From positions 1-42,832 of the IMG/VR virus record IMGVR_UViG_3300045988_147372: 42,832 nucleotides of DNA; one strand, 5' to 3'. The translations under genes and the position numbers were made by a program. Below the pieces are notes generated by a model, which worked only from the letters and a program-made list of their open reading frames with translations, ran no database searches and had not been told where the DNA came from. The DNA comes from a virus. Every line of letters begins with the position of its first letter. The first letter of the stretch is position 1. Of the stretch, positions 2,771-34,183 are shown piece by piece.

Positions 2771-3137
2771 TCCTTCGTGCCAGAATCAGCACGAAGGCTG
2801 TTATGATCGCATTGCTGATCCAATTTGAGTAGATTCCAGTTGAGATGGATGTCAGGAATTGCAGTATTGTCAAGAACGACATTAAAAAGCTGGTAGTTGT
2901 GAGCAACAGACGATTGGTCACTGCTAACTGTGTTTCCCATAGCACCCAACCCCCAATCCCGAGCCCATCAATGACAAACAAAAACCCCACAATGTCATCG
3001 TTTAACCAGTCAGAGTAATGTGGAGGCCAGATGAAATAATGATCATTGATGATCAGGAACAAGCCGATGGCAACCATGCCAATGGCGAGCGCTGCGTGTG
3101 TCGGGTGATCTCTGATTTTATTTAGCATTGTCATCAC
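2742..3137 (-). CDS. Four-TM membrane protein (possible second holin or antiholin)
   Basis: Four hydrophobic segments. RBS GGAAGGAA. The ATG at 3134 is the likely true start. Confidence 0.5.
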   Translation of the reverse strand: MMTMLNKIRDHPTHAALAIGMVAIGLFLIINDHYFIWPPHYSDWLNDDIVGFLFVIDGLGIGGWVLWETQLAVTNRLLLTTTSFLMSFLTILQFLTSISTGIYSNWISNAIITAFVLILARRSDSRDSSDN

Positions 3138-3147
3138 TTCCTTCCAT

Positions 3148-3174
3148 AAAAATAGCCGCTAGCTTTTGCTGGCG
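3148..3174 (-). terminator. Intrinsic terminator between tail and lysis modules
   Basis: Minus strand: CGCCAGC-aaaa-GCUAGCG stem, then CUAUUUUUAUG. It shares an exact 20-nt repeat (3145..3164) with 17651..17670. Confidence 0.55.
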
Positions 3175-3282
3175 ACATAGTCACTGCCTGTGATTTGTTT
3201 GTATTGATCTTGGGTGATCATTATCGGTACATAAGGTGTTAAATCAATTCGCCAACTGTAAAGTAGTGCACACTGATCATAA

Positions 3283-23215: not shown

Positions 23216-24364
23216 TCACACATAGTAAATGGCACGGGTGTCACGATCGCTGTATTCGACCAGCTCAAACGTTTTGTGAGCAACTACGCCGATATCATCA
23301 GTCCATTTGTCGGTTGGCTTGCGTGTCGATACTTGACGCTGAACGAATCCGCCTAGGTCTTTGCTCATCTCTGAATGCAGATGTCCTGTGAACAGTTCGC
23401 GGTTCTGCGCTGTGCCCAACATGAAACCGAACTCATCGAGATACTTTGCGAGGTAATTGTTCTTGCCCTTGTCACCATGAGTGGCTCCAATGAAGTTGTG
23501 ACCGAGCATAGCGCCTTTGTAATGCTTCAGCGATATATCCCAAGTGATGTTTGTCTGGTTGCTGTAGGCGCGTTTCAATAGACGAGCAAACATATATCCA
23601 ACTGACGGATCATGATTTCCGGCACAATACATAACCTCACACTCATTAGCGTTCTTAATGATCGCTTCAATCAGTGTCTCGAAGTATTGTTCCATTTCGT
23701 TCACAGTCTCGCCTAGGTCAGTTGTTTCGAGCTGTGTGCCCTTTGCTGTGGTTGAGTTGATATTATCCACATGAGCCAGATCACCGCCCAGAATGAGCAA
23801 TATCTTTGCGTAGTGGCCGCGTTGAATAATCTCTAGCTGCCGCTTAAGTGATTCAACATAGATGTCGAATGTATGGCCGTTGAAATGCGTGTCGAAAGCA
23901 GGAATGACTAAATAGCGATCTGATTCCACAAAAATAGGAGCCTTAGCTTGATACGGCTCCTTGTGTGTGATGATGTCATTCATCAATGATTCATATTGTT
24001 CAGCCTCAACTAGCGGCCTAATTTGTATCTTACTCTGGAAGAGCGTTGCTTCAGGCTTCTGCTTCCAGTAGTTGCTTGTGGCACGTACAAGCTCCCACTT
24101 TGTGTAATCGTACCCGTGAGCTTCTAAAACCTCTCTAGGCGTCATTTTGTGACCCCTGATAACCTTTAGGATAGTCTCACTGGACTGTGTGCCGTCTGAA
24201 TCGTATTCATTCTTTAGCGGTTTTTGGAACTCGATGCCAAGCCGTCTTGCTTTTCCTTGAAGCGAATCATAGCTAATCCCTAGCTTGTCTGCCGTCTCAC
24301 GTCTGGTAAAACCTTCAGAGGCGAGCTTCCTAATGTCACCGATCTGTTCATCTGTCCATTGCAT
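23216..24364 (-). CDS. N-terminal HTH + calcineurin-like metallophosphoesterase
   Basis: HTH TRRETADKLGISYDSLQGKARRLG. MPP motifs DTHFNG, GGDLAHVDN, GNHD, THGD and GHLH appear in canonical order. Confidence 0.6.
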   Translation of the reverse strand: MQWTDEQIGDIRKLASEGFTRRETADKLGISYDSLQGKARRLGIEFQKPLKNEYDSDGTQSSETILKVIRGHKMTPREVLEAHGYDYTKWELVRATSNYWKQKPEATLFQSKIQIRPLVEAEQYESLMNDIITHKEPYQAKAPIFVESDRYLVIPAFDTHFNGHTFDIYVESLKRQLEIIQRGHYAKILLILGGDLAHVDNINSTTAKGTQLETTDLGETVNEMEQYFETLIEAIIKNANECEVMYCAGNHDPSVGYMFARLLKRAYSNQTNITWDISLKHYKGAMLGHNFIGATHGDKGKNNYLAKYLDEFGFMLGTAQNRELFTGHLHSEMSKDLGGFVQRQVSTRKPTDKWTDDIGVVAHKTFELVEYSDRDTRAIYYV

Positions 24365-24393
24365 CTACTCGCCTCCCGAAATATAATAGCCGT

Positions 24394-24467
24394 GAGCCAC
24401 ATGCAATCATGCTGCTCTTTTCATTTTTTACTCCTCTGGCTCTCGGCCTTACCCACCGAGAGCTTTT
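24394..24467 (+). ncRNA. Array A unit 1: predicted ~74-nt RNA
   Basis: TTGCAT (24359..24364) -17 nt- TATAAT (24382..24387). Terminator GCTCTCGG/CCGAGAGC + TTTT at 24439..24467. Confidence 0.45.
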
Positions 24468-24505
24468 CTATTGCCTGAAAAGTTCGAGTGAGATAAAATG
24501 AATCT

Positions 24506-24585
24506 GTTCCAAACTATATACTCATTTTCATTCCTCGGTACTACCCTAATCTTCTAGCTCTCGGCCCCCAACCGAGGGCTTTTTT
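24506..24585 (+). ncRNA. Array A unit 2: predicted ~80-nt RNA
   Basis: TTGCCT (24471..24476) -17 nt- TAAAAT (24494..24499). Terminator stem 24557..24579 plus a T6 run. Confidence 0.45.
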
Positions 24586-24620
24586 AGTATCTTCTATAAG
24601 GAGTGTGCTAATATATATGC

Positions 24621-24726
24621 GTGAGTAGTGGCTTTTCTCCTCCAAGTCAATCGCTGCTACTCACTAGTGGATTTCATTTTTTCCATTTCTCCGGCCCTCA
24701 GACACTTCGACCTCTGAGGGCTTTTT
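24621..24726 (+). ncRNA. Array A unit 3: predicted ~106-nt RNA
   Basis: TGcTAATAT at 24606..24614. 5' hairpin GUGAGUAG/CUACUCAC (24621..24664). Terminator GCCCTCAGA/TCTGAGGGC + T5 at 24694..24726. Confidence 0.4.
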
Positions 24727-24763
24727 GAATCCGATTTATTGCTATATGTGTTATACTCTTTTT

Positions 24764-24832
24764 TGGCACTGTCGTTTCACCTCAGCAAACGCCGGTAGCT
24801 AGGCCCTCAGTTAATCGCTCAGAGGGCTTTTT
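24764..24832 (+). ncRNA. Array A unit 4: predicted ~69-nt RNA
   Basis: TGtTATACT at 24749..24757, preceded by a TTGCTATA box at 24739..24746. Terminator GCCCTC/GAGGGC + T5 at 24803..24832. Confidence 0.4.
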
Positions 24833-24884
24833 CTGTGTAATCGGTTTTTAGATCTTCTTTTAATTATAGTGGTATAATTATTTT

Positions 24885-24964
24885 TGCAGGAATAATACTT
24901 CTGCACCTCTTAAAAATCTTCTTCTTTCTTTTCGGGCACCTTCGGTTTATGCCGGAGGTTTTTT
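24885..24964 (+). ncRNA. Array A unit 5: predicted ~80-nt RNA
   Basis: TGgTATAAT at 24870..24878. 5' hairpin UGCAG/CUGCA, then a pyrimidine-rich tract. Terminator 24938..24964 (8 bp + T6). Confidence 0.4.
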
Positions 24965-24971
24965 GTTGCAC

Positions 24972-25003
24972 AAAAATAGCACCTCACCGTTTGGCGGAGT
25001 GCT
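24972..25003 (-). terminator. Second (tandem) intrinsic terminator after the ASCH operon
   Basis: Imperfect hairpin AGCACUCCG...CGGUGAGGUGCU followed by AUUUUUG on the minus strand. Confidence 0.4.
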
Positions 25004-25010
25004 TGGGTAA

Positions 25011-25033
25011 ATAAAAAGACGCCGTGGTGTCTT
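25011..25033 (-). terminator. Intrinsic terminator 10 nt after the ASCH gene stop
   Basis: Minus strand: AAGACAC-cacg-GCGUCUU (7 bp, one wobble), then UUUAUUU. Confidence 0.55.
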
Positions 25034-25042
25034 AGCTAAATG

Positions 25043-25414
25043 TTAAACATAAACAAATGATTGTGGAGCTACTTTTACGTTCGGGAAAAGCTCTTGGATT
25101 TTTTGAGGAAGTTTATATTCTTGGTAATTTTCAATTTCGATTGCATACGCCGTTTCTCGTCCTTCGAAATATGCCTCAAAGAAATCATGTGTGATTCCAG
25201 AAAATTCTGAAGTCTTATTCCAAAGCTTATCTGGAGCGTCTTGGAGAACCCTTTTAACTTTAAATTCCCCAACAACCCTTCCGCAAGGCTCAGTAGAATA
25301 AACAACAACTCGGTCCACCTGTCTTTTAAAAATCCCCTTTCTATATTCGAAAAGTTTTCTGCCGCTACGGATTTCGTCCACAAATTCAGGCTTTATTGAC
25401 AACAAAATTCTCAT
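25043..25414 (-). CDS. ASCH (PUA-like beta-barrel) domain protein
   Basis: MRILLSIKPEFVDEIRSGRKLFEYRK... fits the N-terminal ASCH pattern (SIKP..a..I..G.K..E.R). 123 aa. Local GC is low. Confidence 0.6.
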   Translation of the reverse strand: MRILLSIKPEFVDEIRSGRKLFEYRKGIFKRQVDRVVVYSTEPCGRVVGEFKVKRVLQDAPDKLWNKTSEFSGITHDFFEAYFEGRETAYAIEIENYQEYKLPQKIQELFPNVKVAPQSFVYV

Positions 25415-26459: not shown

Positions 26460-26992
26460 TTTTATCACCTCACAAAAATAGTACACCAGCATGAACTGGA
26501 ATACTATATTGAGGTGATATCTGATGTTCTTGGAGTGATAGGCTCCAAAGCGAACGGGCGGAGTTGCACCGCCCCGTTTCAGCATTGCTTAACCGGTATC
26601 AATGCCTTCCCTTGTCTGCTGATCGCATAATGCGCACGGCCTCGATCGTTAACCGTACGGCTTCTGGCTGTTCACCCTTGTCAACCAGCGACCAACTTTG
26701 AGTGGCTGGCAGGACTTTCACCCGCTGTATCTTCCATCAGCCACGCTCGCTCTCCCAGTGTCAGATGGGGTCATCGCAAGCTGTGTCCGGTCGCTAAACT
26801 GGACAATGTGGCATGCGGGAATCAAACCCACCTGACTATCTCAGCCAGTCCATTTGCCACGCCTTGCCACAGCTTTATCATCACTGAGGCTCGGAGGAAA
26901 AATGCGGTGTCTCAGGTTTCTCATCTTTGGCACAATACCATAATACTGCCTATAAACGATCTTTTGGGGGCTTTTTCGGGGCCCAAAAGGGG
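26460..26992 (-). ncRNA. ~530-nt ORF-free, GC-rich structured leader / candidate large ncRNA
   Basis: No credible ORF in any frame. Hand counts on 60-nt lines give 52-60% GC at 26581..26760, against 32-35% in the adjacent CDS. Contains a strong hairpin AACGGGGCGG-ugcaacu-CCGCCCGUU, a tRNA-like element (26807..26860), a GGGGCTTTTTCGGGG direct repeat and the RBS-sequestering helix. Confidence 0.45.
26463..26519 (-). promoter_or_regulatory. 10-bp helix sequestering the RBS of the GNAT-like gene
   Basis: TATCACCTCA (26463..26472) and TGAGGTGATA (26510..26519) are perfect reverse complements 37 nt apart. In the minus-strand RNA the 3' arm contains the GAGGUGA SD, 3 nt before the AUG. Confidence 0.55.
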
Positions 26993-27430
26993 CTAATTCG
27001 GGGCTTTTTCGGGGTTTTTGAAAACCAATAGATTTTCTCCTTGATAGGCTTCTGCAAATTCTAACAGCGCTCGGTTCTTAAGCTTCTTGATTGATTCTCT
27101 TGAGTAACCTTGCATGCGATAAGCAATCTGGTCATAAGTCAGTACCTCTTTGTTGCAGTATGAATAAAACAGCGTCCAGAAGCTTGTGGTTGTTAGCGCC
27201 ATCAATGCATTCTCAATCAGTTCAACGCTAATACGAGCACTGACGACTTTTGCCACTTTACCATCTACTGAATTATTTACTGAATGTGTCTTTGGCATAC
27301 CATCTATAACGGGTGATTTAATGTCAGACAAATAGACACCGCCGATACGTGATAGCGTTCGGAAGTCTTTCAATATCTCTCTTGCCTTTGTACGTGTCGA
27401 ATTTTCGTCTATTTCTGGAATTAACGTCAT
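26993..27430 (-). CDS. ArpU-family phage late transcriptional regulator
   Basis: Start moved to MTLIPEIDENSTRTKAREILKDF behind RBS GGGGTGG. The C-terminal sigma-r4-like YDQIAYRMQGYSRESIKKLKNRALLEFAEAY is typical of ArpU. Confidence 0.7.
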   Translation of the reverse strand: MTLIPEIDENSTRTKAREILKDFRTLSRIGGVYLSDIKSPVIDGMPKTHSVNNSVDGKVAKVVSARISVELIENALMALTTTSFWTLFYSYCNKEVLTYDQIAYRMQGYSRESIKKLKNRALLEFAEAYQGENLLVFKNPEKAPN

Positions 27431-27512
27431 CGGTAGGCCACCCCTTATGGTATAATGAATTTGCCTAAAACTCATCGGGAAGGCGTGCCGTAATGGTGCG
27501 CTTTTTTGATGC

Positions 27513-28047: not shown

Positions 28048-28081
28048 TTTTAGTTCCTTCTTTCTGTGATATACTTACCTT

Positions 28082-28135
28082 TCAAATAATTCGGTTTGAT
28101 AGACTGAGTCGTCCTGTTAATCCGGGGCGACTTTT
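28082..28135 (+). ncRNA. Array B unit 0: predicted ~54-nt RNA
   Basis: TGaTATACT at 28067..28075. Terminator stem 28107..28132 plus T4. Confidence 0.35.
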
Positions 28136-28149
28136 GCTATACTTTGTTT

Positions 28150-28242
28150 TGGAGGCGCTTTCTTATGCGTATTAACCTTATAAGTTGGGGAATAAATCTG
28201 CTTCAAGCACCTCCCGCGCGTTGCTTATGTAACGCGCTTTTT
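28150..28242 (+). ncRNA. Array B unit 1: predicted ~93-nt RNA
   Basis: TGcTATACT at 28135..28143. 5' GGAGGCGC (28151..28158) pairs with GCACCUCC (28207..28214). Terminator GCGCGTT/AACGCGC + T5 at 28216..28242. Confidence 0.45.
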
Positions 28243-28255
28243 GCTATACTGCTTG

Positions 28256-28346
28256 CGGAGACCAACTCCTTTTATAAAGATTCCATTTGACATCTTATGT
28301 GTGTTTCACTGGCCTCCGGCATGCCACTAATGTGGCGTGCTTTTTT
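28256..28346 (+). ncRNA. Array B unit 2: predicted ~91-nt RNA
   Basis: TGcTATACT at 28242..28250. 5' CGGAGaCC (28256..28263) pairs with GGcCUCCG (28311..28318). Terminator 9 bp + T6 at 28319..28346. Confidence 0.45.
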
Positions 28347-28394
28347 GATGCTTTTAAATGTACTTTCGATATTTGTGTTTGCTATACTGATTAA

Positions 28395-28483
28395 GGAGGC
28401 AGCCTCTATTGTGGCGAAATTCATTACTTACATCTCTTAGCTAAATCTGCCTCCAGCGCGTCCTTCATCAGACGCGCTTTTTT
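28395..28483 (+). ncRNA. Array B unit 3: predicted ~89-nt RNA
   Basis: TGcTATACT at 28380..28388. 5' GGAGGCAG (28395..28402) pairs perfectly with CUGCCUCC (28447..28454). Terminator AGCGCGTC/GACGCGCT + T5 at 28455..28483. Confidence 0.5.
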
Positions 28484-28498
28484 GTGCTACACTTTCCT

Positions 28499-28580
28499 TG
28501 GAGTGTCCCTATAAAAAATCTGATGCTATTGGGGCAATTTGTCTACACTCCAGAGCGTGCTTTCGTCCAGCACGCTTTTT
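28499..28580 (+). ncRNA. Array B unit 4: predicted ~82-nt RNA
   Basis: TGcTACACT at 28485..28493. 5' UGGAGUGU (28499..28506) pairs perfectly with ACACUCCA (28545..28552). Terminator AGCGTGC/GCACGCT + T run at 28554..28580. Confidence 0.5.
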
Positions 28581-28582
28581 GT

Positions 28583-28732
28583 TTACCCAAATGCGGCCTT
28601 CCAGAGCACCCGTACAACCCAGCACCCCACAAGAATGAAAACTGCTGTCGTGAATGCACAGCCTACGAAACAACCACCTAACAATCCGGTTTCCACAAGC
28701 CTTTCTGACTTAGATTGACGATCATCAGTCAT
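28583..28732 (-). CDS. 49-aa single-TM membrane peptide
   Basis: MTDDRQSKSERLVETGLLGGCFVGCAFTTAVFILVGCWVVRVLWKAAFG behind a strong RBS GGAGGG (5-nt spacer). It overlaps the end of the methyltransferase fragment by 8 nt. Below the ORF-track cutoff. Confidence 0.5.
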   Translation of the reverse strand: MTDDRQSKSERLVETGLLGGCFVGCAFTTAVFILVGCWVVRVLWKAAFG

Positions 28733-30138: not shown

Positions 30139-30195
30139 TTGTATAAGACATACATTTTTGATATACTAGGTTTACAGGTTACTGTAATGACCTGT
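30139..30195 (+). promoter_or_regulatory. Near-consensus promoter plus palindromic operator-like site
   Basis: TTGTAT (30139..30144) -17 nt- TATACT (30162..30167). ACAGGT-N10-ACCTGT inverted repeat at 30174..30195, between the -10 box and the RBS. Confidence 0.55.
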
Positions 30196-30220
30196 AATAA
30201 ATTAGATGGGAGGACTATTG

Positions 30221-30340
30221 ATGGCAAAAACAAAGTCAAGTGTTCGCGGAACGCAACGGAAGAAAATTGTTGTTGTAAAGCCGTATATCAAGTCTAGCGG
30301 GACTCACGTTGACGGCTATCGGCGTTCCACACCAAACTAG
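30221..30340 (+). CDS. 39-aa highly basic peptide on the strand opposite the replication module
   Basis: MAKTKSSVRGTQRKKIVVVKPYIKSSGTHVDGYRRSTPN. RBS GGGAGG. Has its own promoter and a strong downstream terminator. Confidence 0.5.
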   Translation: MAKTKSSVRGTQRKKIVVVKPYIKSSGTHVDGYRRSTPN

Positions 30341-30362
30341 TTTTAACAGTCATGCTTTAATT

Positions 30363-30401
30363 ACTCCTTTAGGGTCTAAGGTTTCCCTGAGGGAGTTTTT
30401 T
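30363..30401 (+). terminator. Strong intrinsic terminator
   Basis: ~12-bp stem ACTCCTTTAGGG / CCCTGAGGGAGT, 10-nt loop, T6 run. Confidence 0.65.
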
Positions 30402-30411
30402 GTCATTTTCA

Positions 30412-33969: not shown

Positions 33970-34183
33970 CAACCGCCTTCCGTGATAAACTTGAAATATA
34001 ATTGAATGTGCTAAATTCTTGATTTCCCGTAGCTCCAACTACGGGATTTTTTTGTGCGCATTTGTTGAGCATCCGTTGACTAAGCTCGAACATCCAAAGC
34101 CAACCGCTATCTCCATGGCCCTTGTAAATCACGTTCTCGGCTTGATCATGAATGTCTTGCCAATATGCCTTCGTATCACGCAT
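33956..34183 (-). CDS. Hypothetical early protein (75 aa)
   Basis: MRDTKAYWQDIHDQAENVIYKGHGD... behind AGGAGGAAG. This is the credible 3' part of the 152-aa track ORF. Confidence 0.45.
   Translation of the reverse strand: MRDTKAYWQDIHDQAENVIYKGHGDSGWLWMFELSQRMLNKCAQKNPVVGATGNQEFSTFNYISSLSRKAVDDHA

Follow-up and report, generated by a model that had tools for sequence, protein, structure and literature searches.

A Lacticaseibacillus-group prophage carries an accessory array of five predicted small-RNA units transcribed against its lytic genes

We analyzed the non-coding gap in front of the packaging genes of a siphophage-type prophage, which we place in the Lacticaseibacillus casei/paracasei/rhamnosus group, on positions 1 to 42,832 of IMG/VR record IMGVR_UViG_3300045988_147372 (the window, 42,832 nucleotides (nt) in full). 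The gap (24365-25042, 678 nt) lies between an ASCH-domain gene on one side and a gene for a 382-amino-acid (382-aa) protein on the other, and it contains five tandem units, A1 to A5 (array A), all transcribed in the direction opposite to the phage lytic genes. For each unit, the DNA predicts a separate host sigma-A-type promoter and an intrinsic terminator that works in one direction, and the units are non-coding. Orthologues of A1, A2 and A3 are expressed as small RNAs (sRNAs) in the uninduced lysogen L. paracasei BL23, and array A is a set of prophage-encoded sRNAs that are catalogued yet undescribed in the literature that we searched. The explanation that we favor, with a probability of about 45%, is that array A acts in cis as an antisense gate on RNA entering the late operon. 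The five units are as follows.

A1, 24359..24467, plus strand: -35 box TTGCAT at 24359-24364, -10 box TATAAT at 24382-24387, 17-nt spacer; predicted RNA 24394-24467 (74 nt) with a 5' hairpin, the linker UUUUCAUUUUUUACUCCUCUG and a terminator at 24439-24463 followed by a U-run
A2, 24471..24585, plus strand: -35 box TTGCCT at 24471-24476, -10 box TAAAAT at 24494-24499, 17-nt spacer; predicted RNA 24506-24585 (80 nt) without a 5' hairpin, terminator at 24557-24579
A3, 24606..24726, plus strand: extended -10 box TGCTAATAT at 24606-24614; predicted RNA 24621-24726 (106 nt) with a long 5' hairpin carrying UUCUCCUCCAAG in its loop, terminator at 24694-24721
A4, 24749..24832, plus strand: extended -10 box TGTTATACT at 24749-24757; predicted RNA about 24764-24832 (69 nt) with a 5' hairpin carrying CACCUCAG in its loop, terminator at 24803-24827
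A5, 24870..24964, plus strand: extended -10 box TGGTATAAT at 24870-24878; predicted RNA about 24885-24964 (80 nt) with a 5' hairpin, the linker CCUCUUAAAAAUC and a terminator at 24939-24958

A sequence-only reading of this DNA had placed five plus-strand promoter-like boxes in the gap, and every coordinate that it gave agrees with the sequence. When 24340-25060 is scanned with regular expressions, the plus strand gives exactly five sigma-A-type motifs, at those same places, comprising two -35/-10 pairs with a 17-nt spacer and three extended -10 boxes, while the same scan of the minus strand gives only two poor matches. The A2 promoter was also picked up by a consensus promoter scan. A hairpin followed by a T-run lies 50-105 nt past each box, and an RNAfold-based scan puts these five plus-strand sites at 24439, 24557, 24694, 24803 and 24939, with dG values of -10.2 to -14.8 and T-runs of 4-6. 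In 300 dinucleotide-preserving shuffles, the gap yields a mean of 0.14 such plus-strand sites and a maximum of 2, compared with the 5 observed. A stricter consensus terminator scan flags only two of the five array A sites; the A5 terminator was also flagged by the consensus terminator scan. Because none of the hairpins is preceded by an A-run, the terminators are predicted to work in the plus direction only, as the sequence-only reading had claimed. The units are spaced 110-135 nt apart and differ in sequence, each with its own promoter and terminator.

The units have counterparts in the sRNA survey of BL23 (Mickute et al. 2021, PMC8220740), which pooled six growth points of uninduced growth and lists 307 sRNAs. 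From the data that we used (Tables S2, S4, S5, S6 and S8 of that paper), three orthologues were matched to array A as follows.

A1 orthologue: sLCB1266.9-, 75 nt, 86% identity, -35 box TTGCAT, -10 box AAATATAAT, start 6 nt downstream
A2 orthologue: sLCB577.2-, 79 nt, 95% identity, -35 box TTGCTT, -10 box AGCTAAAAT, verified by Northern blot
A3 orthologue: sLCB577.1-, 101 nt, 74% identity, -10 box TGCTATTAT, about 10,000 counts per million (CPM)

The promoter boxes of the orthologues are listed in Table S4 and their terminators in Table S5 of PMC8220740. The 5' end of sLCB1266.9- is GAGCCACAUG, behind -35 and -10 boxes as in A1, and that of sLCB577.1- is GUGAGCAG. The mapped 5' ends of the three orthologues place the probable starts of A1, A2 and A3 at 24394, 24506 and 24621, and the 3' ends of the BL23 RNAs fall within U-runs. 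The reverse complement of the Northern probe for sLCB577.2- covers window positions 24531-24558 except its first 3 nt. sLCB577.3- and sLCB1266.7- are further entries from the same arrays, and together sLCB577.1-, sLCB577.2-, sLCB577.3-, sLCB1266.7- and sLCB1266.9- are direct orthologues with the same promoters, terminators and location (PMC8220740). In BL23 the array sRNAs lie in two prophages, between a CsbD-family gene or a transfer RNA (tRNA) gene and the homologue of the 382-aa gene, by arpU. The survey does not present the array RNAs as prophage arrays, as families or by function, and its main text mentions only sLCB577.2-, in its Table 1 of Northern-tested RNAs (PMC8220740). The claim that array A consists of five independent plus-strand transcription units is thus supported, A1-A3 having orthologues that are discrete RNAs of 75-101 nt, and the units appear to be genes rather than chance motifs. 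No BL23 counterparts of A4 and A5 were found; their conserved promoters and hairpins in relatives suggest that they are expressed as well.

Expression of the A1-A3 orthologues in uninduced BL23 is accompanied by two low-level fragments of the opposite, sense strand, sLCB577+ and sLCB1266+, which have no promoter or terminator of their own. Each of them reaches from one antisense sRNA to another and shares 21-35 nt with both, a pattern expected from the cleavage of a paired sense RNA.

The description of the gap as free of open reading frames (ORFs) holds in the useful sense, as a mechanical search finds only ORFs of 30-39 aa. Across the 46 array-bearing relatives described below, no conserved ORF with a ribosome-binding site (RBS) was found on either strand; the most frequent array ORF, present in 9 of the 46 loci, is not preceded by an RBS. 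An RBS is likewise missing from the 30-aa plus-strand ORF at 24409-24501, whose frame is broken by an indel in PLE3. ARAGORN finds no tRNA or transfer-messenger RNA genes in the window. Rfam gives no match at gathering score over the whole window and, for arrays A and B (a second array of the window, described below) at E<=10, only weak unrelated hits.

To examine conservation, 95 related loci were gathered via the 382-aa protein, of which 78 were used for the terminator and unit counts. The 6 kb upstream of the 382-aa gene in these 78 loci contain 331 terminator-like hairpins on the antisense strand compared with 160 on the sense strand, and the antisense hairpins are clustered with a spacing of about 100-130 nt. 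The pairing of terminators with promoters that had been proposed for the window recurs in these relatives: a sigma-A motif lies 25-130 nt upstream of 78% of the unique antisense terminators, compared with 18% for sense terminators and 21% for random windows. The relatives' units sort into sequence families. Units of A type follow a common plan of a -10 box, a start about 6 nt further on (usually GUGAG), a 5' hairpin of variable length, a U-rich CUCC linker and then a terminator of the pattern GCYCUCGG...CCGAGRGC. Beside the 382-aa gene, the array has no unit in 32 loci, one in 1, two in 17, three in 24, four in 3 and five in 1, placing the window at the upper end. A search of IMG/VR gives 125 matches to the A-type terminator pattern, 107 of which lie no more than 800 nt from the start of a homologue of the 382-aa gene and on the opposite strand; among the other 18, all 12 that were examined are unrelated sequence (coding regions or tRNA terminators). 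The gap DNA itself is matched only in Lactobacillus/Lacticaseibacillus phages, in 44 records, each match being partial and mosaic. One relative, labelled as an uncultured Prevotella metagenome-assembled genome (CALNBT010000079.1), carries a three-unit A-type array and similar antisense terminators; its homologue of the 382-aa protein is only 37% identical, and the label is possibly a binning error.

Conservation extends to the single units and their predicted folds. In the predicted folds of the window units, a single-stranded linker joins a 5' hairpin, which A2 lacks, to the terminator, and CCUC or CUCC stands in the predicted loop or linker of all five array A units. The TATAAT box of A1 is invariant in all relatives carrying A1, and the A2 segment AUACUCAUUUUCAYUCCUC is nearly invariant and kept, together with the promoter, in 20 sequence variants. 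A3-type units show compensatory changes at 3 of 20 pairs in a 14-sequence alignment with few cells unpaired or gapped, and the A3 linker between the 5' hairpin and the terminator is U-rich and contains CAU and CUCC. The TGTTATACT box of A4 is unchanged in eight variants among relatives, in which one pair of its 5' hairpin switches from U-A to C-G, a compensatory change. For A5, one further variant is known, with an identical promoter.

Phage morons are autonomous promoter-gene-terminator insertions between conserved phage genes that are expressed from the prophage, a concept that comes from comparisons of HK97 and HK022. Array A resembles them in having its own promoters and terminators, in being present or absent between the same flanks and in the lysogen expression of its orthologues, but differs in that its cargo is non-coding RNA, in up to five tandem cassettes, all antisense to lytic genes. 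As for a protein that benefits the lysogen, the array holds no conserved ORF, and only the CsbD-family gene of relatives qualifies. This gene for a small stress protein lies in the array gap, in the same orientation, in four relatives (L002, at 2984-3202, L048, L079 and L012), and BL23 also has a CsbD-family gene in the array slot (LCABL_RS02850). Because the CsbD gene occupies the slot in relatives, the slot appears to be a general site for lysogen-expressed cargo. Array A is an accessory, moron-like insertion of shuffled cassettes.

The favored explanation rests on where the array stands relative to the late genes. The lytic genes occupy the minus strand between about 35.1 kb and 0.9 kb, reading towards the lower coordinates, and the lysogeny module lies on the plus strand from 36.2 kb. 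The features that border array A are as follows.

25043-25414: ASCH-domain gene, neighbor of the gap
24972..25003, minus strand: conserved sense-strand block, hairpin AGCACTCCGCCAAACGGTGAGGTGCT then ATTTTT, distal boundary of the array
23216-24364, minus strand: coding sequence of the 382-aa gene, with the RBS reaching to 24377; first gene of a tightly packed run

Annotated as 'DNA repair exonuclease', the 382-aa protein combines a GcrA-like N-terminus with a metallophosphatase domain. Its gene is followed without gaps by a 45-aa ORF, terS and terL. This gapless run leaves no intergenic room for a promoter between the 382-aa gene and terS, and with the genes packed as far as terL, late transcripts would have to cross the array A gap. 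The RBS of the 382-aa gene is GGGAGG at 24372-24377 (CCTCCC on the plus strand). As the sequence-only reading had noted, the -35 box of A1 overlaps the ATG of this gene (CAT, 24362-24364) and the A1 spacer covers its RBS; this promoter/RBS overlap is conserved.

The hairpin and ATTTTTATACA block, whose window copy is 24972-25003, has the consensus AGCACTYC...GTGAGGTGCT followed by ATTTTT(A/G)T(A/G)CA and is conserved in nearly all loci examined. The block is a predicted intrinsic terminator of the upstream operon. In relatives without an array it lies 24-26 nt upstream of the first start codon, whichever gene leads (the 382-aa gene, an 84-aa gene or a 288/326-aa gene), and in array-bearing relatives the array always stands between the block and the RBS. 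Because of this position, any RNA entering the packaging operon would have to cross the array. An extended -10-like sequence, TGCTATTTT, lies inside the block (24981-24973), and the block may have a role beyond termination, perhaps as a late promoter or an ArpU site.

In a cis-acting antisense gate, the five promoters would fire head-on against polymerase passing the block, and the first of them would occupy the RBS and start codon of the 382-aa gene. The abundant RNAs of 70-105 nt, fully complementary to the leader of about 600 nt, would pair with it and lead to its cleavage or decay. Packaging and lysis proteins would then not be made from leaky or early read-through but only once late transcription exceeds the supply of antisense RNA, with the number of cassettes setting the threshold. 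Repression of the late/packaging operon by array A, which the sequence-only reading had proposed, is plausible. It has indirect support from the strict position of the array at the start of the 382-aa gene, between the block and the RBS, and from the sense fragments of BL23 that bridge antisense RNAs (sLCB577+ and sLCB1266+). The layout of a promoter on an RBS also recurs at the late activator gene arpU (the C unit, see below), and the first unit of array B is comparably placed, upstream of the RBS of a 117-aa gene.

Several observations weigh against the gate. The array is absent from 32 of the 78 relatives, which presumably have normal late-gene regulation, which rules out an essential role for the gate. 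Lysogens, in which the RNAs are produced, contain hardly any of the proposed target, and the sense fragments in BL23 could have arisen in other ways. As a candidate for the sense promoter of the operon, TGCTATTTT in the block offers no more than a motif. A purely cis-acting, fully complementary RNA would have no need of the conserved CAU...CUCC linkers, and their conservation beyond what cis-antisense pairing needs points to targets in trans. The CsbD-family gene in the same slot and orientation fits a general site of lysogenic conversion.

An extension of the gate, which we regard as unlikely, is that the cassettes form an RNA gate tunable by copy number, a second layer of immunity independent of the repressor that also acts in trans on superinfecting relatives. 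Each cassette would fire into the late-operon leader and supply a leader-pairing RNA, and the amount of antisense RNA built up in lysogeny would determine when, and above what threshold, the late genes are expressed after induction. Action in trans on superinfecting relatives with the same leader cassettes would drive the shuffling, gain and loss of cassettes.

The closest competitor of the cis-acting gate, which we consider possible and somewhat less probable than it, is that the cassettes encode trans-acting RNAs of lysogeny ('RNA morons'). Their CU-rich anti-Shine-Dalgarno (anti-SD) segments would pair with the RBSs of the host or of superinfecting phages and repress translation as Firmicutes sibling sRNAs do, and the location ahead of the late operon would be no more than a permissive insertion site behind a terminator. 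The sequence confirms the element that the sequence-only reading had described in units 1-3 (24418-24439, 24521-24538 and 24671-24693). Its reverse complement gives an SD sequence and an AUG; the element has CAU 6-9 nt upstream of a CU-rich segment and is thus the exact complement of SD-N6-9-AUG. High expression in uninduced BL23, the CCUC or CUCC in the loop or linker of every unit, the near invariance of the A2 segment, the accessory array with its shuffled cassettes and the CsbD-family protein gene that relatives and BL23 carry at this slot, in matching orientation, are all consistent with such a role. However, CCUC is short, the common element may reflect the shared descent of A1-A3, and the strict positional tie to one gene start is not required for a role in trans. 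Complementarity within the window does not exceed chance: the longest match is 12 nt, and exact complements of 11 nt are isolated and occur at about the chance number, which is an estimate; one of them, at 30403, involves the A2 segment. When duplexes with 97 translation-initiation regions of the window are computed, their energies are no better than those of shuffled RNAs, although the energies themselves looked unreliable.

It is rather improbable that the cassettes have no regulatory role. They would then be promoter-terminator modules, neutral or selfish, spreading through recombination at a module boundary, or would serve only as one-way terminators that shield the early region by blocking transcription from the late side. 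Presence and absence do vary among very close relatives, the cassettes are mosaic and their terminators are one-directional. However, a shield needs one terminator rather than five with conserved strong promoters, the promoters, 5' hairpins and linkers are conserved, with compensatory changes, and the RNAs accumulate to high levels.

There is very little to recommend a reading in which the minus strand is the functional one, with the repeated hairpin, SD sequence and AUG being either leader mini-ORFs or what is left of deleted genes, and with incidental motifs on the plus strand. On that strand A1-A3 read GAGGAG-N7-AUG, GAGGA-N6-AUG and GGAGA-N10-AUG, and the ORFs have 3-6 codons, but these mini-ORFs vary in frame and length, and we dropped them as candidates because an indel in close relatives changes them: a 2-nt indel in PLE3 and BL23 alters the A1 mini-ORF entirely. 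The array-bearing loci have no RBS-bearing ORF in common, and the abundant BL23 RNAs come from the opposite strand. An equally improbable role as a toxin-antitoxin or anti-defense RNA (a type I antitoxin, type III ToxI-like repeats or decoys of CRISPR repeats) draws on the superficial likeness of tandem small antisense RNAs on a mobile element, but neither strand has a small hydrophobic RBS-bearing ORF, the units, each equipped with a promoter and a terminator, do not form short direct repeats, the neighbors are the ASCH-domain and metallophosphatase genes rather than an endoribonuclease-like toxin gene, and there are no Rfam matches.

The window has further units of the same general kind, so that at least 11 promoter-terminator units antisense to lytic genes are present in total (five in A, five in B, and C). 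The other two elements are as follows.

28066-28580, plus strand: array B, five units B0-B4, each with a TGnTAnnCT extended -10 box; TGCTATACT in B1-B3
27448-27507, plus strand: C unit, promoter TGGTATAAT at 27448-27456, abutting the SD sequence of the late activator gene arpU

In the array B gap (28048-28724), the RNAfold-based scan finds five plus-strand sites of a hairpin with a T-run, and single sites also occur at 27483 and 30364. The first array B unit lies just upstream of the RBS of the 117-aa gene, and the BL23 orthologues of array B are sLCB573.2-, sLCB573.5-, sLCB1264.7- and sLCB1264.9-. Arrays A and B had been regarded as diverged members of one family because of a TTGCTATA box at 24739-24746 that recurs in array B. 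The box is indeed present, but two covariance models do not support the shared family. The box lies only 7 nt from the TATACT hexamer, too near to be its -35 box. The array B model scores B1-B4 at 52-76 bits and B0 at 26 bits, compared with 12.5 bits or less for the A units (E 0.39 or worse). The A3-type model gives 34 bits for A1 (E 7e-7) and 27 bits for A2 (E 4e-5), indicating that A1-A3 are paralogues; A5 is marginal (E 0.03), and neither A4 nor the B units are detected by this model (B 12.7 bits or less, E 0.23 or worse). The two arrays also fall into separate BLAST clusters. An A unit consists of a 5' hairpin, a single-stranded linker and a GCYCUCGG terminator, whereas in B1-B4 a helix forms between a 5' arm, GGAGGCC, and a 3' arm, GGCCUCC, that comes right before a GCGCGUC terminator. 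The closing helix of B is borne out by strong covariation, with 17 cells in which both sides are changed; none of 500 shuffles reaches the observed score, and slid controls score far lower. Arrays A and B have only the general plan in common.

The C RNA (about 27463-27507, about 45 nt) runs away from arpU, whose true start is the ATG at 27429. We considered C as an RNA antisense to the arpU start codon and rejected this, as with the start at ATG 27429 only the promoter overlaps the RBS. C is one of the two largest unit families in relatives (46 unique variants), and in BL23 its promoter yields sLCB573.6- and sLCB1264.9-, which read through into array B.

Known RNA systems resemble array A in part. 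The LhrC1-5 RNAs of Listeria are encoded by tandem genes, each with a promoter and a terminator, and have CU-rich anti-SD seeds, and the CiaR-dependent csRNAs of streptococci carry anti-SD and anti-AUG sequences between two stem-loops. Array A shares with them the tandem paralogues (A1-A3), a CAU-N6-9-CUCC element unpaired between two stem-loops and the size of 70-105 nt, but it has no Rfam match, is encoded by a prophage rather than the chromosome and has no evident two-component-system box. RNAs of the lambda aQ/OOP type have constitutive promoters, and their proposed role is to hold back lytic functions. They are single RNAs over a coding region or a defined target, whereas array A places several unrelated cassettes over what would be a non-coding leader; lambda aQ (paQ), OOP, P22 sar and P1/P7 c4 are likewise small untranslated RNAs opposite a regulatory or late transcript (PMC12197685). 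AgvB and AsxR of lambdoid prophages of enterohemorrhagic Escherichia coli and IsrK of Gifsy-1 are also lysogen-expressed sRNAs at a conserved intergenic position (PMC12197685), but they differ in host group, sequence and mechanism (anti-sRNA mimicry; dual sRNA/mRNA) and are not tandem independent genes. Lactobacillus phages and tandem arrays both go unmentioned in a 2025 review of phage-derived sRNAs (PMC12197685), and in our search for literature on phage-encoded sRNA arrays in lactobacilli we found only the BL23 catalogue.

Temperate phages of the casei group matter for dairy and probiotic strains, and several window units have close copies that rank with the more abundant small RNAs of a lysogen. 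If the late operon or ArpU is gated by these RNAs, they would be an unrecognized RNA layer in the control of lysis and lysogeny in Gram-positive siphophages, and the gate would provide a means of making prophages of industrial strains more stable or of removing them. If their action is in trans, the RNAs would be lysogenic-conversion RNAs that reprogram the host. On either reading, entries of a supplementary table become a testable family with promoters, ends, structures and natural presence/absence variants.

Three other places in the window are of note. On the plus strand at 33984-34053, an antisense unit with the extended -10 box TGATAAACT and the terminator TCCCGTAGCTCCAACTACGGGA followed by T7 lies across overlapping minus-strand ORFs, and it matches the promoter and terminator of BL23 sLCB1258- (55 nt, about 240 CPM). 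The minus-strand non-coding region after arpU (26586-26992) has a tRNA-like end, GGGUUUGAUUCCCGCAUGCCACA, with a weak hit to a tRNA model and none by ARAGORN, and its CAGCGGGUGAAAGUCC segment weakly matches a group II intron D1-D4 model (E 0.016). The matching region is expressed on the sense strand in BL23 (sLCB574.1+, sLCB574.4+, sLCB1265.4+ and sLCB1265.7+), and relatives have true tRNA genes (Ile, Met and Leu) at its place. Finally, a plus-strand mini-gene at 30150-30401, divergent from a small minus-strand helix-turn-helix-like gene, has the extended -10 box TGATATACT, an RBS, a very basic 39-aa ORF (MAKTKSSVRGTQRKK...) with no PHROG match, and a strong terminator at 30364-30395.

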